Shown piece by piece: positions 6,936 through 44,840 of a DNA stretch of 64,000 nucleotides. Below the pieces are notes generated by a model. It saw nothing but the letters and a program-made list of their open reading frames with translations, did no database searches and had not been told where the DNA came from. The position numbers were made by a program, and so were the translations under genes. This stretch comes from a virus. How positions within the stretch are numbered: position 1 is the stretch's first letter; each line of letters begins with the position of its first letter. The stretch lies in IMG/VR virus record IMGVR_UViG_3300036760_000327, positions 42,487 to 106,486 of that record. One strand, written 5' to 3'.

Positions 6936-7058
6936 AAACGCACCATTTACATCCTATAGGATTATGTTTAGTAATAATATTTAAACGTATTAACACATGT
7001 TCAAAAAAGTCGCAAAAGTCTTTACCCTGGGATAATAAAGCATTAATTTCTTTTTCCG

Positions 7059-8435: not shown

Positions 8436-8437
8436 AA

Positions 8438-28805: not shown

Positions 28806-30422
28806 TTAAGAAACTAGAGTCCTACCTTTTATAAGAAAATCTAATACAATTTTATGTATAGTTATTAATGCATTTAATTGATTAATTGATAATTTAAATT
28901 TAAAAGCTCTTCCAGGCAATGTAAAATCTAATCGTTTTTCCGCAATATCCTTATCAGCAGCAGTGGATGTAAATGTTATAGTCTTAGCTGCTGTAACGTC
29001 GTTCCAATCAGTATATACAGTAAGTGTAATCGTATATTCAGTAGCTCCGCTAGAATCTATGAATGCAGATGTTCTTAATATTCGTTTATTTCGGTCAGGA
29101 TAGCCAATATCAATCCAAGGACTAACCCAATAACTATTTATAGTGGCTCCCAAATCATTTTCACTTTCTCCAAATCTTTGAAGCTTACCATCGTAAGACC
29201 CAAATGCCAGAAAAGTATCCCCAGCGCCACCAGCTTCTCCAACTATCAGAGAATATGTTTCATATGCATTTGGAAAATCTATATACATTAAATTTGCGCC
29301 ATACAATATGCTCGACAAAGATGCTGCACTTACAGACCATTGAGTCCAATTTTTTACTGTTGGATCATAAATATATATTTTATTTTTCCGTTCGGATGAG
29401 CCCTCGGCTATGTTAAAGAAAATTTGTCCTTTCGTGTCAAAATTATCAGCTTCAAAAACGTGTATTTTGGATGAATTCATACGTTCTACCAATCGTTCGA
29501 TCTTATCAGAAATCCTATAGGGAGGACTTGTACCATCGAAGGCATAAAATCCATCCGCCCCAATAAAATATAAAACTCCATCTTTTTCACATATGGCATT
29601 TGGTCCAACGCAACCTACAGAATTATCTATCTTTTCCCAATCAAAAATTTGTGTTCCTCCCACATATTTAATGACATACGTTTTATATTTTTTAAACACG
29701 ACAATTACATTTTTTAAAAGCCACATGGCTGTAATTACATCGCCTTCTTCACTATCTAAATCCATATAATTTGCGGCTGGCCATGTATCTTGATTTAAAG
29801 CATCATTCCATACCACTCGATATCGGTATCGTATCCCGCCCACTAATACATTACCAGCAAATAAGTACGATCCCCACGCAGCAACTGTTTTTGCTCCAGA
29901 AGGATTGCCTGTTCCTAATATTGGAGCAATATAATCTCCTCCTGTATATACGGCCAGCGGAAGATTACCACCATAAGCCATTACCGCAGACCCTGCATAA
30001 GCCGTTATATCAATCATATTATCAATTGACGGCGCCCAATTACTTAAAGCAGAACCTGACGCGGATACAGAAGCAAAAGTAGCCGAACCACCGGATACGG
30101 TTACTGTAGCAATAGCAGCAGATGCGGCGCCAGAAGTACATGAAAATACTAATGTAAATTCATTTGTGGATGCGCTCTGCCATTGATATATTCTAGTAAT
30201 GGCAGAATCTTTCCATGCGGTAGAATTTAAATTCTCTCTGCCTTGCATTTTATTTAATGCACCGCGAGTATAAAAATCCATGGCATTTATATCAGTAGCC
30301 GGACAGTCGGATAAACGTACTTCTTGGCTACTAATACCTGGTTTAATATTAGCCAATCCCATACGAGTTATCGTATTTTCATCAACTAAACCTTGAGAGA
30401 ATCCTTCAATAATTAATTTCAT
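28806..30422 (-). CDS. tail nozzle / head-closure protein (P22 gp10 / T7 gp12-like)
   Basis: 538 aa beta-propeller-like pattern ('VGCVGPNAI', 'LYFIGADGFYAFDG'); podovirus synteny. Confidence 0.7.
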   Translation of the reverse strand: MKLIIEGFSQGLVDENTITRMGLANIKPGISSQEVRLSDCPATDINAMDFYTRGALNKMQGRENLNSTAWKDSAITRIYQWQSASTNEFTLVFSCTSGAASAAIATVTVSGGSATFASVSASGSALSNWAPSIDNMIDITAYAGSAVMAYGGNLPLAVYTGGDYIAPILGTGNPSGAKTVAAWGSYLFAGNVLVGGIRYRYRVVWNDALNQDTWPAANYMDLDSEEGDVITAMWLLKNVIVVFKKYKTYVIKYVGGTQIFDWEKIDNSVGCVGPNAICEKDGVLYFIGADGFYAFDGTSPPYRISDKIERLVERMNSSKIHVFEADNFDTKGQIFFNIAEGSSERKNKIYIYDPTVKNWTQWSVSAASLSSILYGANLMYIDFPNAYETYSLIVGEAGGAGDTFLAFGSYDGKLQRFGESENDLGATINSYWVSPWIDIGYPDRNKRILRTSAFIDSSGATEYTITLTVYTDWNDVTAAKTITFTSTAADKDIAEKRLDFTLPGRAFKFKLSINQLNALITIHKIVLDFLIKGRTLVS

Positions 30423-30426
30423 AAAA

Positions 30427-31923
30427 TTACAGACAATCTACTGGCAAACGATGAATAGCCAAATAAGTAAATTGAGATGCCCCATAAAGTGTATCATCTA
30501 TCATTGTTTTTGTATAAGCAATTTTAATAGTATCTCCAGCAGATAAAAATATAATTGAAAAAATACTTCCTACTTGGTAAGATGCTATTCCAGGTTCTTT
30601 AATAGGACAATAAGTAGATTGATATAAATTATTATTCTTATAAATATGGACACCAATTACAGGTCTAGCAGGATACCAACTTAATGTCATATAACACTGG
30701 CTTATATCTGCCGAGCATCCAGTTGTTCCTTGCGCTGCCGTATAACCAAATCCTTGAATTCCCGATACTCCAGCAGCCGTCCATGGCAATCCAGTAGTCG
30801 GATCGTTTGCCCATGTCTGATCATAATCTACAAAGGCAGTTGTCAATAAAGTTGTATCTCCAAAATAGTTAGTATTACTTTTGCGTAACACAGCCGCCGG
30901 TCTGGTGGTATCTTCGGAATAACAAACTTGATCACACGAGCATCCAGCAGAACCGTATACTGTAGCATTACAAGTACAACTAAAGGTATAGCATGTAAAA
31001 TTACAAGAACATGCAGAGTAGCCATAACAAGTATTATTACAAGTACAACCACCGTAACCGTCCTGTGCATAACATGTATTATTACAGGAACATGCAGAAT
31101 ATCCATAACATGTATTATAACAAGTACAACTTTCCCCGTAGCATGTATTGTTGCACGTACAACCTTCACCATAGCATGAAATATTACAAACGCATCCTCG
31201 TCGTCTGCTTCTAAATCTTACGGATACATAAGTAGCCCCAGAATCTCCTGGTAACGTTGGCAGCGCACCACTAAACGTATCTGTGCTTCCGCTGGTTTGC
31301 GTAACATTTAAATCTGTATCAATAGCTGTTGGATATTCATCAATATTTTGATAATTTTCGGCCGCGCCACTTGGCGACCATGAATATGTGCCTAATCGTC
31401 CTGTTGCGGATGTAATTCCTGTATCCGTTTGAGTTCCAGAGGCAACCATTGAAGCTTGCGCAATAACTATATAATATCCCGACGCCTTTGCCGTAAATAT
31501 TCCTGTAGCATTATCATATTCATTTAAAGTATCATAATCTTCGGTATCATAAATTAAGGTCTGAGCTGATGCGCCGGCTGTTACACTAGCGCCGCTAGAC
31601 GCGTAAGCTCGTACCCGTGACCAATAATTTGATCCTATATCATTCCAGGATGCGCCATCATATCTGCGTAATATCCCGACAGTTGTATCATATGAAAGCG
31701 CTCCAGATAGTGGGGAAGAACCCGTTAATTCGGCGGTTGTCCCTTCACCCACAATGCCTACAATTCCCAATTGATGCGCTCCTGATGTTGTATTCATTGA
31801 CAAAGGACTATAATGCTCTAATTCATACGCATCTTCAATTGCATCCAGATTGTCTTGTACAACCGCAGGTATATCTTTTATTTTATGTTCTGAATTTGGA
31901 AAAGTTTTTTGCCAACTTCCCAT
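30427..31923 (-). CDS. C1q-like virion protein carrying an inserted domain with 8 CxCxxxCY repeats
   Basis: C1q-like 'YDTLNEYDNATGIFTAKASGYYIV' and 'LSAGDTIKI...IHRL'; paralog of the two upstream ORFs; Cys-rich insert. Confidence 0.7.
   Translation of the reverse strand: MGSWQKTFPNSEHKIKDIPAVVQDNLDAIEDAYELEHYSPLSMNTTSGAHQLGIVGIVGEGTTAELTGSSPLSGALSYDTTVGILRRYDGASWNDIGSNYWSRVRAYASSGASVTAGASAQTLIYDTEDYDTLNEYDNATGIFTAKASGYYIVIAQASMVASGTQTDTGITSATGRLGTYSWSPSGAAENYQNIDEYPTAIDTDLNVTQTSGSTDTFSGALPTLPGDSGATYVSVRFRSRRRGCVCNISCYGEGCTCNNTCYGESCTCYNTCYGYSACSCNNTCYAQDGYGGCTCNNTCYGYSACSCNFTCYTFSCTCNATVYGSAGCSCDQVCYSEDTTRPAAVLRKSNTNYFGDTTLLTTAFVDYDQTWANDPTTGLPWTAAGVSGIQGFGYTAAQGTTGCSADISQCYMTLSWYPARPVIGVHIYKNNNLYQSTYCPIKEPGIASYQVGSIFSIIFLSAGDTIKIAYTKTMIDDTLYGASQFTYLAIHRLPVDCL
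30919..31194 (-). repeat. 8 tandem Cys-rich peptide repeats C-x-C-x-x-x-C-Y (23 Cys)
   Basis: CVCNISCY, CTCNNTCY, CTCYNTCY, CSCNNTCY, CTCNNTCY, CSCNFTCY, CTCNATVY, CSCDQVCY. Confidence 0.95.
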
Positions 31924-31931
31924 ATATTTCC

Positions 31932-32651
31932 TTACGACAGGCGATAAATGTGAATAAAATTTCTATCGCTGCCGCCTTCTAAGACAATACTTGTAGTTCT
32001 ATTATGCCAAACCCAAGTTTTAATTTTATCCCCAGCCGACAAAGAGAATAAAACCGTGGTGCCTGTTGAAATCTCATCTGCTGATAATGTATATTTTAAA
32101 TATGTACTATTATTAATTAATGCATCACTTGAATTATATTGCGCTATTTGTACTCCTATTTCAATTCCTCCAATAGCCGTAAAACTTGCCACTAGTCTAA
32201 CATAGTAAAATCCAGCGGTTTTAGCAACAAAAACATAAGATGAAGCATCGTATTCACTTAATGTATCAAATTGTTCTGTATCAAAGGGTATAACTGCCGT
32301 AGTTCCGGTTGTGACTAAATAATCAGTATTTCGATACGCGCTTACTTGACTATGCGCCAATAAATTAATCTGCTGCCAAGTACTGCCATCATATACTTTA
32401 TGCATTCCTAAAGTCGTATCTTGATATAACGCTCCCGTGGCGGGTAGTGTTACTGCCGTTATAGCTGATGTTGCTGCTGATCCCATTGCTGGAGTTATAC
32501 CAGGTTTATGTCTGCCAGAGAGTACATCAGTAAAAGTATAATGTTCTACGCCTAGAATATTCTCTATTGCGTTCCAATTATCGCCATATATTGTAGGAAT
32601 ATCTACAATATAAGATCCAGTAACTGGGACTGTCTTTGACCAACCACCCAT
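31932..32651 (-). CDS. C1q-like domain virion protein
   Basis: 'IPFDTEQFDTLSEYDASSYVFVAKTAGFYYV', 'LSAGDKIK', 'IYRLS'. Confidence 0.7.
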   Translation of the reverse strand: MGGWSKTVPVTGSYIVDIPTIYGDNWNAIENILGVEHYTFTDVLSGRHKPGITPAMGSAATSAITAVTLPATGALYQDTTLGMHKVYDGSTWQQINLLAHSQVSAYRNTDYLVTTGTTAVIPFDTEQFDTLSEYDASSYVFVAKTAGFYYVRLVASFTAIGGIEIGVQIAQYNSSDALINNSTYLKYTLSADEISTGTTVLFSLSAGDKIKTWVWHNRTTSIVLEGGSDRNFIHIYRLS

Positions 32652-32653
32652 TC

Positions 32654-33367
32654 CTAGCTTAACCTCATGATATGGATATTCCCGCCCACAATATCAACTG
32701 AAGATGTGTGTTCATGATAACATGCTAATACTATATAATCTCCAGCAGCTAAGGATAAAATATCATTGACTTCAGTAGTAACTATTGACGCACCATGAAG
32801 AACAGATTTCGTAGTTAAAACACCGTTTTTGCCAATACCAACACCTTTTGTATAATTATCAGTCGTTACGGGAAATTTCGCCGCGCCTTTAACAAAATAT
32901 GTCCCAGCCTGTGTGGCCGTAAATCGAAATGTAGTTGCATTCCATTCTCCAAGTGTGTCATAAGTGCCTGAAACAGTTGCCGAAGAGGCGCTCATAGTAG
33001 TCCATGCTGTCGTAGGAATAGTTTGGGTTCCAAATCCCTGTCGGATTCTAGAATATTTATTACTAGTTAACCGCACCCAACTAGTTCCGTTATACCGCAA
33101 AAGCTGGCCATTAGTTGTATCATATCCTATTGCTCCAGTGCCTGGCGATGTTAAAGCTGTAATGGCAGAATTAGCCGCGGTTATAAGAACTCCAAACTTG
33201 CCAAAAGTATGAGTGCCACTACCACCACTAGTAAAAGTACTATGCTCTACGTTCCACCAATCTTCTAGAGCCTCCCAATTATCCCTAACATTTTCGGTAG
33301 GATCTGTATGAGCAGAGCCACTTACTGAAGTGCTTGCTAAAGGAAAAAGCTTATTCCATCCCGACAT
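32654..33367 (-). CDS. C1q-like domain virion protein
   Basis: 'YDTLGEWNATTFRFTATQAGTYFV', 'LAAGDYIV', 'IMRLS'. Confidence 0.7.
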   Translation of the reverse strand: MSGWNKLFPLASTSVSGSAHTDPTENVRDNWEALEDWWNVEHSTFTSGGSGTHTFGKFGVLITAANSAITALTSPGTGAIGYDTTNGQLLRYNGTSWVRLTSNKYSRIRQGFGTQTIPTTAWTTMSASSATVSGTYDTLGEWNATTFRFTATQAGTYFVKGAAKFPVTTDNYTKGVGIGKNGVLTTKSVLHGASIVTTEVNDILSLAAGDYIVLACYHEHTSSVDIVGGNIHIMRLS

Positions 33368-34334
33368 ATCTATCCTTAATTTTTATTAACTTAGGAAATA
33401 ACTTTTTAAATTCATTACAAAATGGAGTTTTTTTATCGTATGTACCATATGCTAACTTACGCGTGTAAGGACAACCAGCCTGGCAAAGAGTGATCCACTC
33501 GCAACCTTGACATTCAAGAATATTTTTTGCACTCCAACGTTGGTGCATCTTTAATTCTTTCCAGTGTTTGTGTGTATAAATTGAACCTATTTTTGTATCT
33601 AAATCTGCATTGCAACTTCTTAATGTTCCATCTGGATCAATAACAGCAAGCCATTTACCACAACTGTAACAATTTTTAGGACTCTGCCATGTTGGATAGG
33701 TTGACTCGATGATCCAGTTCGGCCACATTGGTTTTGGTGCTGTAAGTATTAAATCTAAAACTTTATCCATTTGCCTTCCATATTCTTTAACATATTCAGG
33801 ATCTTTTCCTCCATTATATAAACGATTTATCCGAATATGTCCATTATGTTTAATAATTAATTTTGTAAGATCTACAATACGAGGCAGATTCATTTCATCC
33901 AGAACTACTGCCAAACTACATCCGTGACAAAAGTACTTAATATATTCGATCTTTTTTTCTACAATATCCAAATTATCATAAGTAGGATTTAACATGATAT
34001 AAATCTGATGCTTTTTGCATTCCTTAAGGACATCCTCTGACAAATAATCTCCGTTAGTAAATACTAAAAATTGCCCATCTAGATATGCTTTAACATGTTC
34101 AGGCAACCTTGCCTGCAATGCATTGATAAAAAAGAAAACAGTATCAATGGCTATAAATGGTTCACCTCCTAAGAAATTAACTCTTAGGGATTTAACGTTT
34201 TCCTCTTTACATATATCCACTATCCAGTTCGCACTATCCAGCGCAACTTGAGGAGACATCGCGCTTTCACCGTGTGGCCAATAACAATATGGACACACAC
34301 GATTACAATTATTTGTAATATAAACAAAAATCAT
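33351..34334 (-). CDS. radical SAM enzyme with SPASM domain (rSAM-2)
   Basis: 'CNRVCPYC', 'FLGGEP', 'TNG'; SPASM Cys set 'CGK...GTLRSC...CQGCEWITLCQAGCP...C'. Confidence 0.9.
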   Translation of the reverse strand: MIFVYITNNCNRVCPYCYWPHGESAMSPQVALDSANWIVDICKEENVKSLRVNFLGGEPFIAIDTVFFFINALQARLPEHVKAYLDGQFLVFTNGDYLSEDVLKECKKHQIYIMLNPTYDNLDIVEKKIEYIKYFCHGCSLAVVLDEMNLPRIVDLTKLIIKHNGHIRINRLYNGGKDPEYVKEYGRQMDKVLDLILTAPKPMWPNWIIESTYPTWQSPKNCYSCGKWLAVIDPDGTLRSCNADLDTKIGSIYTHKHWKELKMHQRWSAKNILECQGCEWITLCQAGCPYTRKLAYGTYDKKTPFCNEFKKLFPKLIKIKDRYVGME

Positions 34335-35035
34335 TAAAGCGTCGATTGAAAATCCCTCACTTGCTGTGCGGCCTTATTCATCTCTGACAGCCACTGTTCA
34401 ATCTTATTTTCAGAACGACCAGGAACAGCCATCATATATTTTTTTAAATCCATATTTTTATATATATCGCCATTTATTTCGATTAAAATATAAGGATAAC
34501 TCAAAACATTAAACCTTTTTTTAATTAGAATATATTTTTGGACATTTATCCCGTCGCTTTCAAATCTTGGACTAGCGCATGTAAGCATATCTCTATTGAT
34601 TGCGTCCATAAAAAATTCTGAGTTATTTTTAACCGGCACATAACAATATAAATTATTACCCATGCCAGACATAAAAATAATATGTAATAGATCAGCTATC
34701 GCATATCTAGAATATTTTGTATGAATATACTCTTTCCGCACTAATTTAAAATAATAAAAATCGTTATTAGAATAACCATCGGGATTGTCTAAAAATTCCA
34801 TAAGTACGATACTACAAATATTAGAATCATTCTTTTTTACTCTAACACAATATTGCCTGCTCATTCTTTTACCCTTAGGAATATATCCCCCAATTTTATT
34901 AAGAACTATTTGGCACGGGTCATGTTCAAAATAATATTTGACTTTATTACTTTCTTTTTCAGGAATATCGTGTATATCTATATAATGAACTCCTGTCATA
35001 TAACATCCACCAGGAGGTAATAACCTATCATACAT
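34334..35035 (-). CDS. hypothetical protein of the rSAM module (possible degenerate GNAT fold)
   Basis: Translationally coupled on both sides; 'LVRKEYIHTKYSRYAIADLL' loosely resembles GNAT motif A. Confidence 0.45.
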   Translation of the reverse strand: MYDRLLPPGGCYMTGVHYIDIHDIPEKESNKVKYYFEHDPCQIVLNKIGGYIPKGKRMSRQYCVRVKKNDSNICSIVLMEFLDNPDGYSNNDFYYFKLVRKEYIHTKYSRYAIADLLHIIFMSGMGNNLYCYVPVKNNSEFFMDAINRDMLTCASPRFESDGINVQKYILIKKRFNVLSYPYILIEINGDIYKNMDLKKYMMAVPGRSENKIEQWLSEMNKAAQQVRDFQSTL

Positions 35036-35663
35036 AAAATTTATATTTCCTGCATGTTCCTAGATCTATAATTTGATTTGGTATAGGCATATTTGAATCC
35101 GTATAATTAACTGGCAATATTTGATATATTTCTTTCTTATTTAAGTAATTAAAACAAAAGGTTAAAAATTCTTTACTGCATTCTTGCATAATATTATCAT
35201 TTCTTAGAGTTACTGGGCGATACCACAAAGCCTTGTCTCGATAATGAAATAAAATTTCCTTTGAAACCGCCTGCCCATCATAAATAATATACCAAGAATC
35301 TGCTGCATCATAAACAACATCATCAACTAAAAAAGATAACAAATAATCCGTAGACGCGTGATCTTCTTTAAAATCCATTCTAGTTTGTCTGCTGGCCGCT
35401 ACAAAACTCAATATCTCTATGTTCCCGTTTTTATATCTTATATTTGGAACTTCCGTATCTATTGTAATTTGACCCGAAACATATCTTTTAATCATATCCT
35501 CAATAGAATAATTATCTAGAGATAAGGCAGTATATTTATTAACTAATTCAATCCAAGGAGTAATTGTAATTAAACTAATATTATCTTCTTCCAATGCAGG
35601 AATAGGATAATTAATATTTTTTCTTAGACGTAACGAATTAGCAAATGGATAAAGTCTTGGCAT
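35028..35663 (-). CDS. hypothetical protein of the rSAM module
   Basis: 211-aa ORF overlapping the next gene. Confidence 0.5.
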   Translation of the reverse strand: MPRLYPFANSLRLRKNINYPIPALEEDNISLITITPWIELVNKYTALSLDNYSIEDMIKRYVSGQITIDTEVPNIRYKNGNIEILSFVAASRQTRMDFKEDHASTDYLLSFLVDDVVYDAADSWYIIYDGQAVSKEILFHYRDKALWYRPVTLRNDNIMQECSKEFLTFCFNYLNKKEIYQILPVNYTDSNMPIPNQIIDLGTCRKYKFYV

Positions 35664-35668
35664 AATTT

Positions 35669-36463
35669 TTAATTATAATAATCAACCTCTTCAACAATTG
35701 ATGTTCCACGATCTGTCAAAAACTCGAATAGTACCATTTCCAGTCGTCCTGGTACCATTCCTCCTTCATATACTGCAACAGCTTTTATATTCCAAGGTTT
35801 ACTACTATAAGCACTATTTAACTCGGCTATCAAATCATGATTTTTACCAGGTTTAAAATAAGGTTTTGCGCCATCTATAACAGAACGTAACCGATTAATA
35901 TGTGCATTACAAAAAGATGGCAAATAATCAAGAGAACCTTGTTCTTTAATTTTATTCTCTTTATTTTTAATTATTTTAGAATAAATTTTTACTTCCGGAC
36001 CGCCGATCAATTTCCGAACTGAATTTTGAAAGAACGATACTAATTCTGGACCTCTTACATATACATCGCTTCTGGAAATGGTTGAATGTGTAAAAGCAAA
36101 TAATCCCATTAAAAGTACGGTAGCTCTCCATTTATATTCGTCTAAAAGTAAGGCATCATTATAAAGCGACACTAGAGCACTAGCCTTTTTGTACATAGCC
36201 GCTCTTTGTGGTTCTGGAATTGGTTGAACATTTACTTCTTCCATTGGAACATTTATTTTATTAATATCCTTATACATTTTTGGCGATACTGGTTGAGGAA
36301 TAAACGGGCCCCCATGCGTGAGGTGTTGCCTCCAATTTCTTGCATCCTTAATAACTTTAATAATTGGATTGCCTGGAAATTCCTTAGCAAAATTAATTAC
36401 TTGTAAATGTCCATTATGTAATCCTGATACATGATCTGCTATAGGTATTATTACTCTGCTCAT
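35669..36463 (-). CDS. HIGH-motif nucleotidyltransferase-superfamily protein (PanC-like N-terminus)
   Basis: N-terminal beta strand followed by 'SGLHNGHLQVINFA' (HxGH). Confidence 0.55.
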   Translation of the reverse strand: MSRVIIPIADHVSGLHNGHLQVINFAKEFPGNPIIKVIKDARNWRQHLTHGGPFIPQPVSPKMYKDINKINVPMEEVNVQPIPEPQRAAMYKKASALVSLYNDALLLDEYKWRATVLLMGLFAFTHSTISRSDVYVRGPELVSFFQNSVRKLIGGPEVKIYSKIIKNKENKIKEQGSLDYLPSFCNAHINRLRSVIDGAKPYFKPGKNHDLIAELNSAYSSKPWNIKAVAVYEGGMVPGRLEMVLFEFLTDRGTSIVEEVDYYN

Positions 36464-37710
36464 TTAATTTTTTTCTCTAATACAGCGATCCTATTATTCA
36501 AATCTGATACCAATAAAGCTAAAGTTTCTACAGTTATTTGAGGATGATTAGTTGGCCCAGTATAATTTGCATTATAACAATCACAACTAAATCTTTCGCC
36601 TTGATATGGCATGCAACTTACATCCTTTGTATTTTCCACCATTCTCTCTTTATAATATTGGGATACTCTTTTTTGCATCTCAACATATCTACATACCTGA
36701 AAATAAGGTTTAGTAATATCTTTATTAAAATCCCAGTTTACCATATAGCACCCGCCCCAGCACGGACTTGTTCCCCAGCATCCCTTACCTTTACATTCAG
36801 GCTCAAAATTAATAAATTTCTCCCGAATTTCTGGTTTAGTAATCCCTTGGTCAATATGTCCTAAACATAATTCTTGTTCTATAAAAGGTCGATTATCATT
36901 AAATTTTTCGGCACGATGACAACTAAAAATATATCCCTCATGATTAATATGACAATAATTACGACCACTTCCGCAGGGCCAGCGGCTATTATCTGGACCA
37001 ATATAGGATTTAAAATGTTCTATTTCAACCTTTCTTCCTTTTAATTTAAGTTCTGCCATATAATCTACAACTTGTTTACATTGATTTTCCCATATATTCC
37101 ATTTTTCTTCTGTCCAATTTGATTCGTAGACAGGCGAAAACATTAAATAATTACATCCAAGATCAAAAATATATTTACAATCTTCATAAAAATGATCTAT
37201 TCTTTCAGCAAAAGGAGACATCCGTACTCTATAAAAGGGCCACTTGTTTAATATTTGCTTTAAATTTTTTTCTACAATTGCATGAGATCCAAAACCTTGT
37301 TTTGTCTTTCTATGATAATCATGTGTTTCTTTTGTCCCGTCAAAACTGATCATAAAAAATATTTTATGTTCGTCTAAGAAAGAAAAACGCTCTGGAACTA
37401 ACAAAGTTCCATTAGTTGTGCCTCCAAATTGAATAGGAATAGCTGTTCTTTTCGACATGTCTTCTGCATATAGTGTAATATCTTTTAATAAATCCCACTT
37501 TAATAAAGGCTCGCCCCCCCAAAAAGAAATTTCAACTTGTCGTTCATTTTCATCCGCCAATAAAGCATTAGTAAATAACCATTCTATTGCTTTAAACGCT
37601 ATTTCTTTGGACATATCCCCTTCTGTGCAACCATAAGTAAAGCACGGATAAGTACACCTAAGATTACACGAACGAGTTAAATTAAAAGAAGCCCGAGTTA
37701 AATTATACAT
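36460..37710 (-). CDS. radical SAM enzyme with SPASM domain (rSAM-1)
   Basis: 'CNLRCTYPC' (CX3CX3C), 'FWGGEPLL', 'TTNGTLL', 'ISFDG'; SPASM 'CGSG...GYIFSC...CKGKGCWGTSPCWGGC...C'. Confidence 0.9.
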   Translation of the reverse strand: MYNLTRASFNLTRSCNLRCTYPCFTYGCTEGDMSKEIAFKAIEWLFTNALLADENERQVEISFWGGEPLLKWDLLKDITLYAEDMSKRTAIPIQFGGTTNGTLLVPERFSFLDEHKIFFMISFDGTKETHDYHRKTKQGFGSHAIVEKNLKQILNKWPFYRVRMSPFAERIDHFYEDCKYIFDLGCNYLMFSPVYESNWTEEKWNIWENQCKQVVDYMAELKLKGRKVEIEHFKSYIGPDNSRWPCGSGRNYCHINHEGYIFSCHRAEKFNDNRPFIEQELCLGHIDQGITKPEIREKFINFEPECKGKGCWGTSPCWGGCYMVNWDFNKDITKPYFQVCRYVEMQKRVSQYYKERMVENTKDVSCMPYQGERFSCDCYNANYTGPTNHPQITVETLALLVSDLNNRIAVLEKKIK

Positions 37711-37721: not shown

Positions 37722-38795
37722 TTACTTATGAGATATTTGAGTTGGTGGTCCTTTACTTGATGGTGGCAACGCATTTCCCAAAGGCAATAAAGTATCAATA
37801 TAATCTAATACACCTCCGGGCTGGTAGAAAAAATTAATATCCTCTTGGGATAGGCCAGCAAATGGATTTACTCCCATGTATGAAATTAAAGGCCCACTTA
37901 CATCACCCCCGACAATACCCCTTCCAGGAGTATAATATGCCGATATCAATGATTTTTCCCCCCCAGCTCCTTTTCCTAAACTAGCTGGTTGATTAGCTTT
38001 ATCTCTTGCTTCTAATATCTTCCACCATTTTTCAAGAGGAGAACCAACGGGAGGAGTCCATGGTGTAAGCGTATCAAGGCTTTCGCTTTGATATCCTCCT
38101 TGACCTATTAGTTCCATCAATCCATGGGGAGAGAACAATTGTGAAGCGTAAGGCGCCCAATCTTGCAAATACCATTGTGAACTAGCAGCATCGGTTGGTC
38201 GCGCCAACGTAGGAGCGGGCTTCCCATATCCAGCTTTTGTGGTAGGATCATATTCCTCTTTCCACGTTCCCTGGGACCCCCACCTAGGATCTAAATACTT
38301 TCTTTGCTGTGCTGCAAACCAGTCTGGTGATATTGGTTCATTTGCAAGAGGATCTTTACCGCCCAGAACACCCTGCAATAATCCTCCTAGTACAGAACCA
38401 ACAAACGGAATAGCAGACAGATAGCTACTATATGGATTAGTAAAAGTATTTTGTCCTGCCATAAATGCTCCCAAACCACCTAGGGTTGCTCCTCCCAGAG
38501 AAGCGGCTGGCAGAACGCCAAGTTGTTGTCCTACGGTAGAACCCAAATTACTAGTTATGTAATTCAAAGCCGGATTGCTATTAGGTATAGCTGTATTTAA
38601 TATAGATGACAAAAAGCCAGGAGCACCGCCAGCTAAAGCCGCGGATAAATCTTGATTGCCCAATAATGTATTTCCTAAAACACTTCCAGCATATTTTCCA
38701 ATAGGACTGGTATATTTTCGTTCTTCTCCACCTAAAATATTTCCAAGTAATCCTCCTGCTGTGCTTCCAAGTTGGCTATAATTTATATTAACCAT
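37722..38795 (-). CDS. Gly-rich internal virion protein
   Basis: Gly/Leu-rich amphipathic N-terminal half; RBS AAAGGAG. Confidence 0.5.
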   Translation of the reverse strand: MVNINYSQLGSTAGGLLGNILGGEERKYTSPIGKYAGSVLGNTLLGNQDLSAALAGGAPGFLSSILNTAIPNSNPALNYITSNLGSTVGQQLGVLPAASLGGATLGGLGAFMAGQNTFTNPYSSYLSAIPFVGSVLGGLLQGVLGGKDPLANEPISPDWFAAQQRKYLDPRWGSQGTWKEEYDPTTKAGYGKPAPTLARPTDAASSQWYLQDWAPYASQLFSPHGLMELIGQGGYQSESLDTLTPWTPPVGSPLEKWWKILEARDKANQPASLGKGAGGEKSLISAYYTPGRGIVGGDVSGPLISYMGVNPFAGLSQEDINFFYQPGGVLDYIDTLLPLGNALPPSSKGPPTQISHK

Positions 38796-38808: not shown

Positions 38809-39522
38809 TTAATTATTCATCTTGGTAATTCGTTTAAATTGTTCTACATTAAAATCTTTATAGGATTTCATTCGTACCATTACATCACTAGATTTCCTAT
38901 CCTTTTCTCGTTTTATCATTCGTTGAATCTCACTAGCATATACTCCAGCAAATTTTTGTGCTTTAGCATCATCCTCTAAGTATATAGCCCCACGTAAAAC
39001 AGCCCCAAATATTACAGCCTCAGTATGAAATGTGGATATATAATCATACTCGGCATCCAATGTCCAATCCGCTGGATTAGCATAATATTTTATAGTAAGG
39101 GTATAAGTAGCATCAGGAATAGGATATAAATCAAATTCCATACCTCGATCAATATAATAATCCGGTTCCCCTGTTTCAGATGAGCTCGTAGTAAATAATT
39201 TCTCTGGAGAACTATCTGTAGATGCAATATCCGAATCACTACCATGAATTGAATCAAACTCATTTGGCAATATTCTAATTAATTTTTTAGTCCCAAGAAA
39301 TATATTCAAATGACCTAGATAGTCGGAAGGCAGTGCATATCTTGCAGTGCTGGCTGATACGGTAGCAGTAGATTCAGTGTATAAATAATTAAAATTATAT
39401 TCTCCCGCCAGCGCTCTTCGTGCATCATTGATCCACTGCCCGATTTCGGTATCTATGTCTGTCCGATTGTCCAAATAGGATTTAACTCTGGTTTTTATAG
39501 TTCCAAAATCATTAAAACTCAC
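38809..39522 (-). CDS. head-tail adaptor (P22 gp4 / T7 gp11-like)
   Basis: 'WINDARR', 'YALPSDY', 'LYPIPDATYTLTIKYY'. Confidence 0.75.
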   Translation of the reverse strand: MSFNDFGTIKTRVKSYLDNRTDIDTEIGQWINDARRALAGEYNFNYLYTESTATVSASTARYALPSDYLGHLNIFLGTKKLIRILPNEFDSIHGSDSDIASTDSSPEKLFTTSSSETGEPDYYIDRGMEFDLYPIPDATYTLTIKYYANPADWTLDAEYDYISTFHTEAVIFGAVLRGAIYLEDDAKAQKFAGVYASEIQRMIKREKDRKSSDVMVRMKSYKDFNVEQFKRITKMNN

Positions 39523-40159: not shown

Positions 40160-40549
40160 TCACTCACCCATATCATCTCTTTTTAAGAGGTTTAGGCGCG
40201 TTTTTAATGGTTGTACATAATCTTTAGGATCGTTGGTTGTGAATTTAAATTCTTGAAATTCGATACCAACTTCTGCCTGGTCCCTTTTGATAATCAAATG
40301 TGGAAGCATAATTTTTAATAGTCTATATGCTTGTTCATCTTTCCATTTTGCCCTAAATTGTCCCCCAGAAATTCTACCAATAATAGCATCAAACATTTGT
40401 AAGAATTTCATAAGTTCCGTATATTTAGAGGTGATCCATACATATAATGATGAATCAGATAAATTTTTCTTGTCTACAATTATCTTGATGCTCCCATGAA
40501 TATCAAAAATTCCTGCCGTATAAGCAATTTCGGATCTATTGTACCTCAT
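40160..40549 (-). CDS. free-standing, probably degenerate LAGLIDADG endonuclease
   Basis: 'IAYTAGIFDIHG' (catalytic acidic position replaced by His) and 'LPHLIIKRDQA'. Confidence 0.65.
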   Translation of the reverse strand: MRYNRSEIAYTAGIFDIHGSIKIIVDKKNLSDSSLYVWITSKYTELMKFLQMFDAIIGRISGGQFRAKWKDEQAYRLLKIMLPHLIIKRDQAEVGIEFQEFKFTTNDPKDYVQPLKTRLNLLKRDDMGE

Positions 40550-40573
40550 ATATCCTCCATTGAATTTTAAGTG

Positions 40574-40619
40574 CTGGAGGCTTCTGCTTTCTTTCGATTG
40601 CTTTTAATGAAGCCTCCAG
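40574..40619. terminator. 11-bp inverted repeat stem-loop
   Basis: CTGGAGGCTTC ... GAAGCCTCCAG between the two free-standing endonuclease genes. Confidence 0.45.
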
Positions 40620-40641
40620 GTTAAAGGTTAAAAACTAAATG

Positions 40642-41106
40642 CTAAAGACTCAGTTTTTTAAGTTCACTAAGTTTTACTCGCAAAGATTCTCGATAAACGA
40701 TAGTATCTTCCGATAGACCACGTGCACCATTAGATGTCCCCATTAAATCCTTATGTTTCTGTAAAGTTAAGCCAACCAAGGCTTCTTCTTTCTTTACAAT
40801 TAAATAAGGTAAAATCAATGTTAACATCTTTGCTGCCTTTCGATCCATCATAACTGCAACCCAGCATCGTTTCCAATGCGGTAATTGAGATTTCGCTGTA
40901 CGCTCTCGAATATAAAATCCAAGTTCCTTAAGAAAAATCATCAATTTAGCAGATGTATTAGTAATTTGCAACTTCAATCGGTATCGCTTACTACGATAAC
41001 CTTTATTAACTTTAGCTGCATTAATTCTAATACAACCCTCGCCATCTACAATCCCCGCAAGATATATTATCTTAGTGGTCGCTTCATCCATTGTAACCAC
41101 CTCCAT
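40642..41106 (-). CDS. free-standing LAGLIDADG homing endonuclease
   Basis: 'IYLAGIVDGEGCI', 'ITNT', 'LPYLIVKKEEA'; immediately after the capsid stop codon. Confidence 0.85.
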   Translation of the reverse strand: MEVVTMDEATTKIIYLAGIVDGEGCIRINAAKVNKGYRSKRYRLKLQITNTSAKLMIFLKELGFYIRERTAKSQLPHWKRCWVAVMMDRKAAKMLTLILPYLIVKKEEALVGLTLQKHKDLMGTSNGARGLSEDTIVYRESLRVKLSELKKLSL

Positions 41107-41133
41107 AATAAAATACTCAATGATTTCAATAAC

Positions 41134-44100
41134 TTAGCCGGTTACCCCGGTCAACAACCCGTGCTTTTCTTCGTTGTGGAATTCAAATCCGACTTCGCAG
41201 ATGTATTGCAATTTGTTGCTGTCTTTTCAGACGAGTCAAACATTTCTGTTGACTTCTTAATGTTCCCATTAAGTTCGGACTGTGTCTTCTGATCATTAAG
41301 ATCTGGGCTATGTACAGTCTCTACAGGAATTATAAGATCATAAGTTCTATTAATTTTATCTACTTTTTTGATTAAAGAATTAAACGCTTTTGTATATTCT
41401 TTATCATGCACATATCCATTGTCTTTAACTAATGTATTTCTATAATTTAAGAAACTACATATCAAATCAGCAATGGATTTTTTTAAGCCCACCATACATT
41501 TCCTAGTAATGTTTAAAATTCTATGAACATCATTAAACTTTGATATTACCAAACGGTAACATTGTCTAGTTCTTAGTCCATTTGGATTGGATACTGAATA
41601 TATTTTAACTGGATGCTCTAGTTCTTTCTCAAAAACTGATTTAGCCCAATTAATAATACCTATATCAGTATTACTAATCTCTATTCCAAGATGCGGCGAA
41701 CTTAAACAATTCTCACCAGTTCGTTTGTATGGTCTGCATACTCTAATTGAACCTTCTGATTCAATCAACATGCTTAATCTGGCGACGTCTTTAAGCTTCA
41801 TAAAAAGCACCTCCTTGGCATGTCTTACGATCTGATTATTTCCCTCGGCGTTGTCCATTCTAGGACTTTCACCGATTAAATAGCCTTTTACAAGGACCAA
41901 TTGTCGATCCTTCACGAAATCGTCCCCTGGATGTTGAATATCAGCTTCCATGGTCACGTCTCTATTTTGTAAGAAACGATAGACCATTTCATCTAACTTC
42001 AATCCAAAGGCATATCCACCATAAAGAGCGGTATTGCTAACAGAACCAGCATTCTCTAACATATAATCCTTAATCAGATTCAAGGTTCCATGAGGAGAAA
42101 GGTATTGCGCTATCGCAATTCCGTACGTTCTATCTTTGGGGTACATTTGAAGTTTTCCTTGTGCCCACTGGCTGATTACTGAAATAATCAGCGGGGATGC
42201 AAACAGATAAACTTCATCTCCACCAAAGCGCGTCACTGTCCTAATGAATGCCTCAAAATCTGCTTCAGTAAGGATTCCACCCACTGCTGTAACGTTAGTG
42301 TTGATAAAGAAATCAGCTCCACCAGATGTCCGTCTAGCATGGGTAATAGTAGAATCTAATCCCGAAGAAGTGTCTTCTAATCTTTCTCCGTACAAAGCCA
42401 TTCGCTCGATGTCGCGCATAAGCTCGATGCCTTTAACTTTCCGCTCGTATGCACGGTAATTTCCGCCATCAATTGTGTTATTCTGAATCCTTAAGATTCA
42501 ACTCTTTGCATCGCTGCAAAGTTCGGACTGTATCATCATCCATCCCTAATGGAATGGATGCCTTACGTGCGGTCTCTGAGGAAATATATTTAGGTTTGCG
42601 CTGTATTTCATACCGTTCAAACCAACGATTAATTTGTTCTTCAGAAATTGTTTTTCGTAAATTCGTATAGCCTTGTTGTTGCCTCCACTTAATATATTCT
42701 AGCAAAAACATAGCTAAGTATTTCTTATTTCGCAAATAGGGTAAAATAGCATTTAAAAACTTTTTACAGGTATTTAGCCCATTTGATTCGATCTTAAGAG
42801 CCATATTCCATTTTTTATTTCTAAGATTATTCTTTTGCAAACTAAAATGAAAGTTAATGCTTAAAGCATACAAAATATTACTAATTTCCTTAATCATTAT
42901 TTCATCACAGTTCGTAACAGAAATACCTGTCGCTATCCATCCATATTTATGACCGGATGATTTATCCATATCTTTCTTTCTGAAAAACATGATGGAACCT
43001 TCTCCATCAATAATACCAGCTAACCAAGCTAAATCGGTATCTTTTATAATCATTTTATATCTCCTGCTGATTAACCCCACCTTTCTCTTTTACCAAACAG
43101 GTGGAAAGGATACTGGGTTTTTCCAGCATTTTATAAGGTTTTCATTATATCATTACTGATATACGCTGCATGCCTTATACAGCTCGGAATTTAACATAGT
43201 ATTAGTCACCTCAACGGATTTTCTAATAGTCTGTAAATAGTTATAGACTCTTGCGGCTTTGCGACTCTTTGTATAAAGAGCAGTAGAAGGAGATCCTTCT
43301 TCAAAGGCTGCACCGATGATCACCATCGTTGCTGCATTGGCTGCCGAGGCCGCGGCTGTAGCACCATAAGCTCTAATAGCTGTTACAGCGCACGCTGCTG
43401 TAGCTGTTACTAAAATAACTTCGCCGGTTGAAGGAATTTTAACCAAGTCATACTTGTTAAAATAATTACCTTCGCCCGAGGCTACAGTTAATCCAGTAGC
43501 TGCTGACGTAGCAGAAGCTGCTAATGAAGACCAACTCGGATTAAGATCCAGATGTGTATTCTAGTCATTACTGACTAGCTCGGACTTTATCATCATCTTG
43601 CGATGTTTCACGTAAAGTCTCTGAGGAACGGAGTTTTGTCAAATCAAGTACGCTATTAGCCAATCGTGGAAGATGTAACATATTATATCTTTCTGCTTTT
43701 GCGAGTTTATGTTTCTCTATTAACTGATTAACATAATCTCGATCAATATAATCTTTATATCTCCCATCAGGTCCGCGGTTTTTTATTAATTGTTCGCGAT
43801 AATTTGCGTATTCTAGCATGATATCTACTTCTGCTTGTTTGGTTTTTAAGTAAGGACGTATCATTTCTATTAATTTTCTACAACTCCCCGTACTATTACA
43901 AACTATTGTAATAGCATGATTTTGTTTACCGTGTAAATTATAAGCATTAATAGTATAATGAAATTTTAGTCCTAACTTATGCCACATTTCACTAACAGCT
44001 CTAATCATATATGGATTAGTATTACAAACCGTAACTATCATAGAGATAAATGTTGCCATATCACTCTTATTTAATTGTTTTCTTGATTGGTAACACAACA

Positions 44101-44840
44101 TTAAACATCCTTCTCCTTCTATGATAGCCGCTAGCCATGCTTTATCTTGCTCTGACAACATATAATTTCCTTTCCTGCTGATTGTCCCGCCAAAGGAATT
44201 GTCACATAATGTATCCTTGACATAGGAGTTTCCAGCATATGGTGAAATTTTATGAGAACAATGTTGTTTATTCTCAGGCCATTCTACTGTAGTGTTGATG
44301 GCTACCCTTTTGTTAAGCTTTGAAACCAAAACGTACAAAGGCATAAATGTTAACTGCAATTTCGTATTACGATTATTTTTGCAGATCAGACTGTCGCATC
44401 ATCTTTCGATGTCTCCTCGCTCAGTCGTTCACGGTGCTTTCGCTTCCGCCCTGTTGTCCATCTCTGGATGTCCAAGTCAATCAGAGGAGATTTATAGCGG
44501 CCCGCTTTGTCAAGCCGCCTCTGGCTGTAAAAGATAAATTTTATCCAAATTTGTTAATGATTTCAATAAGTTATGAAATCATGCTTGCTCATTTCTGTCA
44601 AGCTCTGCATATTCATTTATATGCAGTTCAGACTGTCGCTTCTACTTTCGTAGTCTCTCCACTCAGTCGTTGCAACTGCACGGCTTTCGCCTGCTTGTTG
44701 AGGGTTGCCATCTCAGGTGTTCCCCATTAATCAGGAGAGATTTTATATGACCAAGTAGTTTACCAAGCCATATCCACCACACGTAGATTTGACAATATGT
44801 TTTGTGAGCCTGTTCCGCCCGTTACCATTGTTGCTGCCAT
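41134..44840 (-). CDS. major capsid protein (SU10/DUF5309-like), six exons, 395 aa after splicing
   Basis: Exons 44840-44766, 44545-44513, 44341-44270, 43548-43179, 42469-41907, 41208-41134 total 1188 nt in one frame. Junctions read VVDMA|DKIYLLQPEAA|PLYV...VEWPEN|DLNP...SELY|GGNYRAYERK...MRDIERMALYG...FVKD|QYICEVGFEFHNEEKHGLLTGVTG*. RBS AAGGAGG; follows the scaffold gene. Confidence 0.88.
41151..41801 (-). CDS. intron 5-encoded LAGLIDADG-like endonuclease
   Basis: 'ARLSMLIESEGSI', 'ISNTD'; own RBS AAGGAGG; in frame with exon 5 and runs past the 3' splice site. Confidence 0.75.
   Translation of the reverse strand: MKLKDVARLSMLIESEGSIRVCRPYKRTGENCLSSPHLGIEISNTDIGIINWAKSVFEKELEHPVKIYSVSNPNGLRTRQCYRLVISKFNDVHRILNITRKCMVGLKKSIADLICSFLNYRNTLVKDNGYVHDKEYTKAFNSLIKKVDKINRTYDLIIPVETVHSPDLNDQKTQSELNGNIKKSTEMFDSSEKTATNCNTSAKSDLNSTTKKSTGC
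41209..41906 (-). mobile_element. group I intron 5 of capsid gene (698 nt) with LAGLIDADG-like ORF
   Basis: P1 AAGGAU/GUCCUU with U-G at the splice site, P3 GGCUAU/AUAGCC, P7 GACUGU/ACAGUC, terminal G. Confidence 0.88.
42470..43178 (-). mobile_element. group I intron 4 of capsid gene (709 nt, phase 1) with LAGLIDADG ORF
   Basis: P1 GCUGU/GCAGC places the splice site inside a Tyr codon (T|AT); P3 CCUUAU/GUAAGG; 'CUCAGAGACCG...ACAGUCCGA' core; terminal G. Confidence 0.88.
42478..43053 (-). CDS. intron 4-encoded LAGLIDADG endonuclease
   Basis: 'LAWLAGIIDGEGSI', 'LPYLRNKK'. Confidence 0.85.
   Translation of the reverse strand: MIIKDTDLAWLAGIIDGEGSIMFFRKKDMDKSSGHKYGWIATGISVTNCDEIMIKEISNILYALSINFHFSLQKNNLRNKKWNMALKIESNGLNTCKKFLNAILPYLRNKKYLAMFLLEYIKWRQQQGYTNLRKTISEEQINRWFERYEIQRKPKYISSETARKASIPLGMDDDTVRTLQRCKELNLKDSE
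43549..44269 (-). mobile_element. group I intron 3 of capsid gene (721 nt) with LAGLIDADG ORF
   Basis: P1 GAGAAU/GUUCUC, P3 UUUCAC/GUGAAA, P7 GACUUUA/UAAAGUC, terminal G. Confidence 0.88.
43568..44161 (-). CDS. intron 3-encoded LAGLIDADG endonuclease
   Basis: 'KAWLAAIIEGEGCL', 'IRPYLKTK'; in frame with exon 3. Confidence 0.85.
   Translation of the reverse strand: MLSEQDKAWLAAIIEGEGCLMLCYQSRKQLNKSDMATFISMIVTVCNTNPYMIRAVSEMWHKLGLKFHYTINAYNLHGKQNHAITIVCNSTGSCRKLIEMIRPYLKTKQAEVDIMLEYANYREQLIKNRGPDGRYKDYIDRDYVNQLIEKHKLAKAERYNMLHLPRLANSVLDLTKLRSSETLRETSQDDDKVRASQ
44342..44512 (-). mobile_element. group I intron 2 of capsid gene (171 nt, no ORF)
   Basis: P1 GCGGCU/GGCCGC, P3 UCUCCUC/GAGGAGA, P7 GACUG/CAGUC, P8 CAUC-GAAA-GAUG, P9 CUGCAA/UUGCAG, terminal G. 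Confidence 0.87.
44546..44765 (-). mobile_element. group I intron 1 of capsid gene (220 nt, no ORF)
   Basis: P1 AUAUGGCU/GGUCAUAU, P3 UCUCUCC/GGAGAGA, P7 GACUG/CAGUC, P8 CUAC-GAAA-GUAG, terminal G. Confidence 0.88.

Follow-up and report, generated by a model that had tools for sequence, protein, structure and literature searches.

The stretch of DNA analysed here (the window: 64,000 nt, positions 42,487 to 106,486 of IMG/VR virus record IMGVR_UViG_3300036760_000327) belongs to a complete phage genome of 106,486 bp with direct terminal repeats. Positions 30,427 to 37,710 of the window hold a compact module that encodes two radical S-adenosylmethionine (SAM) enzymes with SPASM domains, rSAM1 and rSAM2, together with a tail fibre-like protein that carries an array of Cys-rich repeats. 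Between the two enzyme genes lie those for a protein with an HxGH motif, here called PanC-like, an orphan protein of 211 aa, and a 233-aa protein, X; two further paralogs of the fibre protein complete the module. All these elements of the block described in a first-pass annotation were found again, on the minus strand. At least 60 other uncultured phages carry arrays of this kind in tail proteins, nearly always with adjoining radical SAM enzymes. We propose that the enzymes modify the array, so that a part of the tail fibre is probably welded chemically by the phage's own enzymes; such welding is undescribed for any virus. The features on which this proposal rests are as follows.

30427..31923, minus strand: fibre paralog 3, 498 aa, putative C1q-like jelly roll interrupted by ~260 inserted residues that hold the Cys array
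30919..31194, minus strand: the Cys array, proposed substrate; 8 units C-x-C-(N/Y/D)-x-(S/T/V)-(C/V)-Y with a period of 11-15 residues
33351..34334, minus strand: rSAM2, second radical SAM/SPASM enzyme; CX3CX2C motif and TIGR04085 SPASM match (42.3 bits, cut-off 27)
36460..37710, minus strand: rSAM1, 416 aa, radical SAM/SPASM enzyme (Pfam PF04055 Radical_SAM) in the PapB/SCIFF/QhpD (ranthionine-forming) neighbourhood
36562..36585, minus strand: substrate-like CDCYNANY unit, located past the SPASM domain in the rSAM1 C-terminal tail
37642..37668, minus strand: SAM-cluster motif of rSAM1, variant CX3CX3C (CNLRCTYPC); aligned homologs (n=5) have CX3CX2C

The array occupies residues 244-335 of the 498-aa protein and consists of exactly eight CxCxxx(C/V)Y units, five of which read N-x-(S/T)-C. 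It holds 23 Cys in 92 residues, versus four in the other 406 residues of the protein. The count of eight tandem units with 23 Cys in 92 aa made at first pass was thus correct; the RFRSRRRG sequence noted before the array is also present, but its conservation does not extend past the nearest relative. The repeat is weak at the DNA level, where the units have diverged (74% over 2.6 copies) and only a faint 33-nt period is left; hence, there is no sign of recent array expansion. The array-bearing open reading frame (ORF) is unique of its kind in the complete 106-kb genome, and the arrangement recurs in many contigs, which together argue that the array is not a chance feature. The repeat region matches no family in Pfam or NCBIfam, and the array protein has no relative among GenBank phages. 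Within the module of the window, no small Cys-rich ORF and no alternative Cys-rich or peptide substrate was found. Outside the array, the protein may resemble C1q: the Pfam C1q model scores 23.9 bits against a cut-off of 23.7, and Foldseek matches an AlphaFold2 (AF2) model to C1q domains (TM by target 0.75-0.83) over ~397 columns, as expected of a jelly roll interrupted by an insert. This model is of low confidence (mean pLDDT 54.8, ~45-55 in the array region) and was used for the C1q-like halves only.

To test for co-occurrence of array and enzymes, we searched IMG/VR with rSAM1, rSAM2, X and the PanC-like protein. An array protein lies within a few kb of rSAM1 homologs (at least 32% identity) in 12 of 12 distinct viral contigs (L001, L003, L004/5, L013, L031, L047/L075, L050, L077, L080 and L082). 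Arrays are likewise present on all six viral contigs with rSAM2 homologs, and there is an array nearby on every viral contig found with homologs of X or the PanC-like protein. The first-pass annotation had suggested looking for co-occurrence of the enzyme pair with Cys-repeat proteins, and had regarded frequent occurrence of the pair in phages that lack such a protein as fatal to its proposal. The co-occurrence holds in both sets of contigs, and no phage contig with the pair but without a Cys-repeat protein was found.

The converse search used a degenerate DNA pattern spanning two array units, and was independent of the enzymes. It covered prokaryote genomes, IMG/VR, and JGI/ENA metagenomes, and the counts apply among the matches listed. 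In 185,579 prokaryote genomes there is one true array, on a 2.6-kb contig with an adjacent rSAM1 gene, whereas IMG/VR and the metagenomes yielded many. When an in-frame array is defined as at least two strict units, the 173 loci divide into 65 with an in-frame array and 108 chance matches (782 kb of control sequence). A gene of the rSAM1 or rSAM2 family is present in the fetched stretch at 41 of the former but only one of the latter (Fisher p 1e-21), and that single positive, L050, in fact holds a short real array. With the related loci and the window included, the matches listed give 50 non-redundant loci with an in-frame array. Where at least 5 kb of flanking sequence is available, 17 of 20 non-redundant loci have the enzyme, or 18 of 20 if we count L047, whose enzyme lies just outside the fetched stretch. 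Distances between array and enzyme are mostly 0-2 kb, and in many loci 0-60 nt.

The related loci show that the array is found in very different settings:

L013: nearest relative, with the same nine genes, 7-8 units, and an extra domain inserted ahead of the array
L001: four-gene core of rSAM1, PanC-like, X and rSAM2; the fibre, of 736 aa, has at least 28 units
L003: enzyme set present in duplicate, with four SPASM enzymes in all; more than 12 units
L004/L005: a very different phage with a tape measure; four units inside central tail fibre J (phrog_31, E 5e-35)
L050, L077: J-like carriers
L080: 246-aa carrier directly before rSAM1
L082: 255-kb phage in which two proteins next to three SPASM enzymes bear variant arrays, CSCDGSCNGDT
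L047a: baseplate-like carrier (phrog_7378)
G002/L020: complete 69-kb phage, array with an rSAM1-type enzyme only
G003/L026: complete 37.7-kb siphophage, array with X and rSAM2 only

Orthologs of the array protein in L013, L001 and L003 range from 7 to more than 28 units, and the largest carriers reach 1068 aa with ~47 units and 150 Cys. At the other extreme are near-pure array proteins of 185-326 residues (L026, L031, L179). The carriers are unrelated to one another: a C1q-like fibre, central tail fibre J, a baseplate-like protein, and stand-alone proteins in tail modules. Hence, the earlier suggestion of a repeat array embedded in a structural protein extends to the tail proteins of three unrelated scaffolds. 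In L004/L005, the four-gene core lies 3.7 kb downstream of the array-bearing J gene. In the siphophage, a stand-alone 204-aa array gene, X and rSAM2 lie between the gene for a 998-aa collagen-like tail fibre and those for a tail assembly chaperone and the tape measure. The array is thus portable among carriers, and the enzymes follow the array, not the carrier. Furthermore, the two complete phages with a single enzyme indicate that each enzyme is independently tied to the array.

Two other loci (L086, 6088-7098; L087, 5071-5565) encode fibre-like proteins with Cys-rich C-terminal tails of other kinds (e.g. HCSYCSYCSYCSQCNNC...) beside pairs of more distant SPASM enzymes. To judge from these sequences, radical SAM genes may accompany Cys-rich ends of tail proteins more broadly, beyond the CxC(N/D)x(S/T)CY motif.

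We derived a repeat consensus from 707 units of 60 non-redundant proteins among the matches listed, with Cys1 and Cys3 fixed by the selection of units. It reads C1-[S54/T22]-C3-[N62/D23/Y9]-x-[T51/S14]-C7(85%)-[Y75/H10], where the numbers are percentages of units, and the period is mostly 11-12 residues. An NxxC motif is therefore evident, with Asn4 in 62% and Cys7 in 85% of units. Ranthipeptide maturases are known to use such residues as acceptors: in NxxcA, Cys23 is joined to Cβ of Asn20, in freyrasin Cys to Cβ of Asp, and in SCIFFs Cys to Cγ of Thr (PMC8326336). The conserved Asn, Asp and Thr of the array coincide with these acceptor residues. We also considered an N-glycosylation sequon (N-x-S/T). 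Ser/Thr6 is equally frequent after Asp4 (64%) and Asn4 (69%; p 0.24). As Ser/Thr6 is independent of the residue at position 4, the sequon is not what is selected.

What kind of enzymes accompany the array? Among NCBIfam models, rSAM1 scores best with the PapB ranthipeptide maturase (206.8 bits), followed by the SCIFF maturase (144.6), nif11-type (144) and QhpD-type (140) models. It matches the structure of CteB (5wgg, E 2e-29) over CteB residues 101-438, the SPASM region included. The first aligned pair is rSAM1 residue 9 with CteB residue 101, which is past the recognition element for peptides that are made by the ribosome and modified after translation (the RiPP recognition element, RRE), and the cluster motif of rSAM1 begins at residue 15. 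Since the alignment starts there, rSAM1 lacks an N-terminal RRE. Its SPASM cysteines C246, C264, C306, C317, C321 and C340 are invariant in six homologs, and the spacing of the second SPASM block varies (Cx4Cx5Cx3C in the window, Cx2Cx7Cx3C in L001). A CxC[YNDF]xxx[YFH] unit, which resembles the proposed substrate, occurs within the last 130 residues of 99 of 120 members of the rSAM1 family, and some have two. The family comprises 149 clusters in 5.8 billion proteins, with no functional name on any of them; GenBank phages hold radical SAM relatives of at most 30% identity.

Like rSAM1, rSAM2 has no RRE. Its CX3CX2C motif (CNRVCPYC), the type that binds the SAM-cleaving [4Fe-4S] cluster, is kept in six of six homologs, and its invariant SPASM cysteines are C225...G...C241, C275x2C278x5C284x3C288 and C306. 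As criterion for a SPASM domain we used the seven-Cys motif CX9-15GX4C ... CX2CX5CX3C ... C, which corresponds to two auxiliary clusters. Further NCBIfam affinities of rSAM2 are weak and mixed (PapB 66.9 bits, YhhB 53, anSME 45).

Several observations concern the enzyme family as a whole. The database copy of rSAM1 (P0006, 384 aa) begins at Met33, so that 37615-37710, the cluster-binding motif included, is left out; as called, 19 of 120 family proteins lack the cluster motif, and several homologs are cut at the start like P0006. Automatic annotation would miss the completeness of these radical SAM enzymes as a result of such truncated gene calls. In L032/L187 (2266-5037), the rSAM1 match is split in two inside one open frame of 924 aa, and two database homologs of rSAM1, P0033 and P0074, carry the intein domain PF14890. 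Together, these findings indicate that a SPASM maturase gene holds an intein. In the human gut phage MT835472 of GenBank (L210, 7405-7617), a 47-aa SCIFF-like peptide with a leader, a GG motif and seven Cys is encoded directly upstream of a distant rSAM1 relative (27% identity), a pair that, from its sequence, looks like a classic small ranthipeptide system on a phage. In phage Phass-1, the radical SAM gene precedes one for a 174-aa protein whose ends are rich in Cys.

The remaining genes of the module are the following:

35669..36463, minus strand: PanC-fold HxGH protein, 264 aa (AF2 model and Foldseek)
35028..35663, minus strand: orphan 211-aa protein, optional module member
34334..35035, minus strand: orphan 233-aa protein X, possible GNAT-like fold
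32654..33367, minus strand: fibre paralog 1, 237 aa, no Cys array (phrog_35360 tail fibre protein, E 6e-7)
31932..32651, minus strand: fibre paralog 2, 239 aa, C1q/BclA-C-like, no Cys array (phrog_13286 tail protein, E 8e-8)

Paralog 1 can be aligned to the 498-aa protein over the N-terminal ~165 residues and the last strand of the latter. Paralog 2 matches the Pfam models BclA_C (E 3e-5) and C1q (E 8e-4), both under their cut-offs.

The 264-aa protein had been described as nucleotidyltransferase-like. Its HxGH motif is genuine (H16-N-G-H19; H16, G18 and H19 are invariant in five homologs), but the fold is not that of a generic nucleotidyltransferase. Foldseek with the AF2 model (pLDDT 79.6, pTM 0.75) against the Protein Data Bank (PDB) returns pantothenate synthetases for all of the top ~50 matches, at full length (E 4e-9, TM 0.5-0.59, ~285 columns). 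Sequence profiles match PPAT (E 0.009), and PanC over just 25 residues around the HxGH motif; there is no Pfam match at E ≤0.01, Pantoate_ligase (PF02569) included. The protein thus shares with PanC a two-domain fold over its full length and the invariant ATP-binding motif, but differs in its low identity (10-16%), the lack of a Pantoate_ligase match, and a context that is a putative protein-modification module. On the strength of the model, we take it to be a PanC-fold enzyme, presumably an adenylate-forming, ATP-dependent adenylating enzyme or ligase.

The 211-aa orphan belongs to no family in Pfam, PHROG or NCBIfam. Its homologs occur only in L013 and L186, and it is absent from the modules of L001, L003 and L004. 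X has just five matching proteins among 5.8 billion. Its gene immediately precedes that of rSAM2 in the window, L001, L003 (twice), L004, L013 and L026; in L077, an X-like gene is found immediately ahead of rSAM1. The structural neighbours of X in the ESM Atlas are GNAT acetyltransferases (TM 0.42-0.62), and a profile search against PDB sequences found nothing; a GNAT-like fold is therefore a lead only. Profile comparison gave no significant similarity between the 211-aa orphan and X, or between X and a Mom-family protein. In L186 (127-10058), an array protein and an rSAM1 homolog are part of a larger cluster, in which the rSAM1 homolog is followed by genes for UPF0489, a methyltransferase, a PanC-like protein, a QueC/DUF7411-like PP-loop ATPase, the 211-aa homolog, and a Mom-family protein.

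Taking these data together, we think it probable that the co-encoded SPASM enzymes staple a repeat domain of a tail protein through thioethers. This explanation is favoured by the kinship of rSAM1 to thioether-forming enzymes, the outcome of both co-occurrence tests, the portability of the array, the acceptor residues in the consensus, the precedents described below, and the substrate-like tail of rSAM1. The proposal has several parts: that the array is modified, that the chemistry is thioether formation at particular sites, that the product enters the virion, and that this has a functional consequence there. The CxC(N/D)x(S/T)CY array of the third fibre paralog would be the substrate of both rSAM1 and rSAM2. 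Late in infection, in a host cytoplasm that is anoxic or reducing enough, each enzyme would process the array one unit of 11-12 residues at a time. The enzyme would make a 5ʹ-deoxyadenosyl radical that abstracts a side-chain hydrogen from an acceptor residue, and the sulfur of a neighbouring Cys would then be joined to the acceptor carbon as a thioether (ranthionine). The likeliest acceptors would be Cβ of Asn/Asp4, linked to Cys7 (NxxC, as in NxxcA), and/or Thr/Ser6, linked to Cys1 or Cys3. Given two enzymes and units of three Cys, each unit may acquire two kinds of bridge. The product would be a densely stapled, non-reducible, protease-resistant rod or knob on the C1q-like head of one tail-fibre chain.

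Recognition would proceed through the local motif without a leader peptide or RRE, perhaps with help from the substrate-like C-terminal unit of rSAM1 and from the accessory proteins. Such motif-directed action is plausible since PapB acts without its RRE (residues 1-86) or a leader peptide (PMC12715619). The PanC-fold and GNAT-like proteins would probably help the enzymes, or else prepare or introduce another modification. We also put forward a broader and more tentative proposal, to which we give somewhat less than even credence: tailed phages of anoxic habitats may share a portable cassette, made up of an expandable array (4 to ~47 units) and one or two leader-independent SPASM enzymes, that can be inserted in any tail protein and yields a thioether-laddered module at the receptor-binding end. 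The substrate-like tail of the radical SAM enzyme would then serve as a docking or templating element that replaces the RRE.

Several points weigh against thioether stapling of the array. The evidence for the rSAM/array system is genomic: gene content, family relationships, the repeat consensus, and co-occurrence across phages and carriers. Every NCBIfam score of rSAM1 is under the curated cut-off (206.8 vs 340 bits for PapB-family NF047865, 144.6 vs 425 for SCIFF maturase TIGR03974, and 39.6 vs 525 for CrpC-type TIGR04463), and rSAM2 is also under the cut-offs of NF047865 (66.9 vs 340) and TIGR04463 (38.3 vs 525). Neither enzyme is a member of a characterized equivalog; as judged by these scores, both resemble characterized families in setting and are not members of them. 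The cluster motif of rSAM1, CX3CX3C, is unusual. Among 101 full-length family members, 88 have the canonical CX3CX2C, and 13 have a Pro-containing variant; as these 13 differ from one another, the alignment identifies the variant as a conserved sub-clade feature rather than sequence error or damage. The array region of the AF2 model is of low confidence, and we draw no array geometry or fold from it. The pattern used in the converse search fixed some residues in one or two units per protein, which slightly inflates the consensus. Two arrays with more than 5 kb of flank, those of L136 and L147 described below, also count against it. Stapling by itself does not explain the PanC-like and GNAT-like genes. 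Moreover, the PanC-like gene of L186 adjoins the Mom-like and QueC-like genes, which suggests nucleic-acid chemistry; the PanC-like and orphan genes might instead serve to modify nucleic acids.

Tyr8 is as well conserved as the proposed acceptors, and aromatic crosslinks would also fit. Hence, the array could be the substrate of a chemistry that is not, or not solely, a Cys-Asn/Asp/Thr thioether: a Tyr-centred C-C or C-S linkage of the cyclophane type, conversion of Cys to formylglycine, epimerization, or a different reaction for each enzyme. Tyr or His is found at position 8 in 85% of units, two distinct SPASM enzymes are kept together, which suggests two chemistries, and YhhB, which forms cyclophanes, is the second-best NCBIfam match of rSAM2 (53 bits), ahead of anSME (45), although these scores are not decisive. 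By contrast, the affinities of rSAM1 to thioether-forming enzymes are much stronger, the alternation of Asn and Asp at position 4 is expected of a β-carbon acceptor next to a carbonyl, and the jumbo-phage arrays (CSCDGSCNGDT) keep Cys and Asp/Asn without Tyr, yet are still beside three SPASM enzymes. We consider a different chemistry, the main rival of our proposal, rather unlikely.

An alternative explanation for the arrays is that they are autonomous metal-binding or disulfide domains, metallothionein-like or β-solenoid-like, that need no enzyme, and that the radical SAM enzymes are merely linked to them and have another target. CxC is a typical metal-ligand motif, and modified CrpA, described below, is itself suspected of metal binding. 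In addition, two arrays with more than 5 kb of flank, L136 and L147, show no radical SAM gene in the fetched stretch. The L136 array protein (639 aa, 115 Cys) is flanked by genes for GT1 and GT9 glycosyltransferases and a methyltransferase; glycosylation is possible there. In L147 (2195-2851) and its relatives L097 (371-1048) and L204 (681-1337), near-pure arrays of 219-226 residues with 54-55 Cys lie beside TnpB/IS605 OrfB, and the 4-10 kb fetched for these loci contain no radical SAM gene; ORFs of at least 150 aa are missing from most of the other 6 kb of L147. However, autonomous domains would not account for the enrichment at in-frame arrays (41/65 vs 1/108 among the matches listed), for the radical SAM genes that often abut the array gene (0-60 nt), for a linkage that survives changes of carrier protein and phage type, or for the substrate-like tail of rSAM1 in a module that offers no alternative Cys-rich or peptide substrate. 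We therefore regard this explanation as very unlikely. We hold a faint prospect, too, for the idea that the arrays are multi-core RiPP precursors whose units are excised as small stapled peptides (a toxin, signal or anti-defence factor) and not kept in the virion. It would suit the near-pure arrays of 185-326 residues, and distant phage SPASM enzymes do stand beside small Cys-rich precursors, such as the 47-aa peptide of MT835472. Nonetheless, the array of the window and its relatives interrupts a fibre paralog between its jelly-roll halves, elsewhere it lies inside fibre J, and even the stand-alone array gene sits in a tail module; Pfam, PHROG and NCBIfam scans revealed no protease or exporter gene in the module of the window.

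The boundary genes of the module are:

38809..39522, minus strand: head-tail adaptor-like virion protein, 237 aa, upstream boundary (phrog_2941 virion structural protein, E 2e-16)
37722..38795, minus strand: Gly/Leu/Ser-rich protein, 357 aa, no assigned function, directly 5ʹ of rSAM1
28806..30422, minus strand: nozzle-like virion protein, 538 aa, downstream boundary (phrog_3287 virion structural protein, E 3e-26)

From 39522 down to 28806, every gene is on the minus strand, and neighbouring genes overlap by at most 17 nt or are separated by at most 11 nt, which agrees with the tight coupling reported earlier. Nine genes lie between the adaptor-like and nozzle-like genes, in the order 357-aa protein, rSAM1, HxGH protein, 211-aa protein, 233-aa protein, rSAM2 and the three fibre paralogs. 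A head-tail adaptor and a nozzle had been named as the flanks. The adaptor finds weak support in PDB matches to phage adaptors (7z47, E 3e-4; 8zkk, E 0.07), and a homolog has the equivalent position in L001. The nozzle is plausible from phrog_3287 and a match to PDB 9nwi chain Y (E 2e-10; the entry has six chains); its orthologs lie directly 3ʹ of the array protein in L001, L003 and L013. The 357-aa protein matches no Pfam or PHROG family, and a longer relative (516 aa) occupies the equivalent position in L013. Scans for promoters and terminators gave nothing in excess of shuffled sequence.

Elsewhere in the genome, a third radical SAM gene (7059-8435, within 4875-12017) encodes a B12-binding enzyme of class B type, HpnJ/BchE/ApyD-like at up to 91 bits. 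Two small methyltransferase-like genes and one for a GT4-like glycosyltransferase flank it; the L136 array protein likewise has glycosyltransferase and methyltransferase neighbours. Several LAGLIDADG-type ORFs surround a capsid-like gene at 40160-44359, and the C-terminal part of the capsid-like gene is fused in frame to one of them.

What would be the significance of thioether stapling in a phage tail? If our proposal is correct, this would be the first enzymatic crosslinking of RiPP type in a structural protein of a virus, and RiPP-type radical chemistry would reach beyond secreted peptides and a few cellular proteins to the architecture of virions. With enzymes of its own supply, the phage would use non-reducible thioether bridges to harden or shape the apparatus by which it recognizes its host. 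The proposal would also explain the presence in tail modules of SPASM enzymes, which in viromes are usually classed as “auxiliary metabolic” or “antibiotic” genes; the family now includes at least 60 arrays and ~150 enzymes, none functionally named. Finally, a short motif, leader-free enzymes and a freely variable array length would amount to a compact genetic route to hyper-stable protein modules, which is of interest for protein engineering.

Our literature searches brought up no report of a phage structural protein modified by a radical SAM enzyme. The first-pass annotation went further, in that it knew of no characterized system of this kind; this no longer holds, since QhpD/QhpC and, since September 2026, CrpC/CrpA (PMC13692751) show SPASM-made thioethers in Cys-rich proteins, which are not viral. 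The closest characterized system is CrpA/CrpC of Methanococcus voltae. CrpC, a SPASM enzyme (TIGR04463), puts ranthionine crosslinks into the 28.8-kDa CrpA, which has ten 17-residue Cys repeats, and the paper makes no mention of viruses or phages (Dieter et al. 2026, PMC13692751). As in the phages, a SPASM gene is beside the gene for a large tandem Cys-repeat protein, and the predicted β-helix of the CrpA repeat region is likewise of low confidence; the ranthionine of CrpA was demonstrated experimentally, in a protein and not in a short peptide, whereas modification in the phages is inferred. In contrast to the phage enzymes, CrpC has an RRE, and CrpA has a leader-like N-terminus and a 17-residue unit with CxxQ/D. 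Furthermore, CrpA/CrpC is cellular and archaeal, has no virion context, and involves a single SPASM enzyme without PanC-like or GNAT-like partners.

QhpD, the older precedent for stapling of a protein, is a SPASM enzyme that makes Cys-Asp and Cys-Glu thioethers in QhpC, as permanent staples of a subunit of quinohemoprotein amine dehydrogenase, and the QhpD-type model is the fourth-best match of rSAM1 (140 bits). Unlike the phage proteins, QhpC is a subunit of ~80 residues with three bridges and a leader, is recognized via an RRE, has no repeat array, and is not viral. The best-scoring characterized relatives of rSAM1 are PapB, which acts on PapA (freyrasin), and the SCIFF maturases CteB/Tte1186; these enzymes have three [4Fe-4S] sites and form Cys-Asp/Glu/Thr thioethers in repeated short motifs. 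Their substrates are leader-core peptides, whereas the presumed phage substrate is a domain in a 498-aa tail protein. The CX3D spacing of PapA is not the conserved spacing of the phage array, and SCIFF systems have an adjacent peptide of ~45 aa, which the module of the window lacks. A related bridge is that of NxxcB/NxxcA from Streptococcus orisratti, a β-thioether from Cys to an Asn three residues upstream (Caruso et al. 2019, reviewed in PMC8326336). Most phage units read N-x-(S/T)-C at positions 4-7 and so share the NxxC of NxxcA. As summarized in that review, NxxcA is a short peptide regulated by quorum sensing, with a single bridge, whereas the phage unit has two more Cys and a conserved Tyr; there is no NxxcB model among the listed NCBIfam matches of the two enzymes, and no comparison with the NxxcB sequence was made. 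What is new relative to CrpA/CrpC and QhpD/QhpC is the virion context, the portable cassette, the substrate-like tail of the enzyme, the CX3CX3C sub-clade, and the PanC-like and GNAT-like partners.

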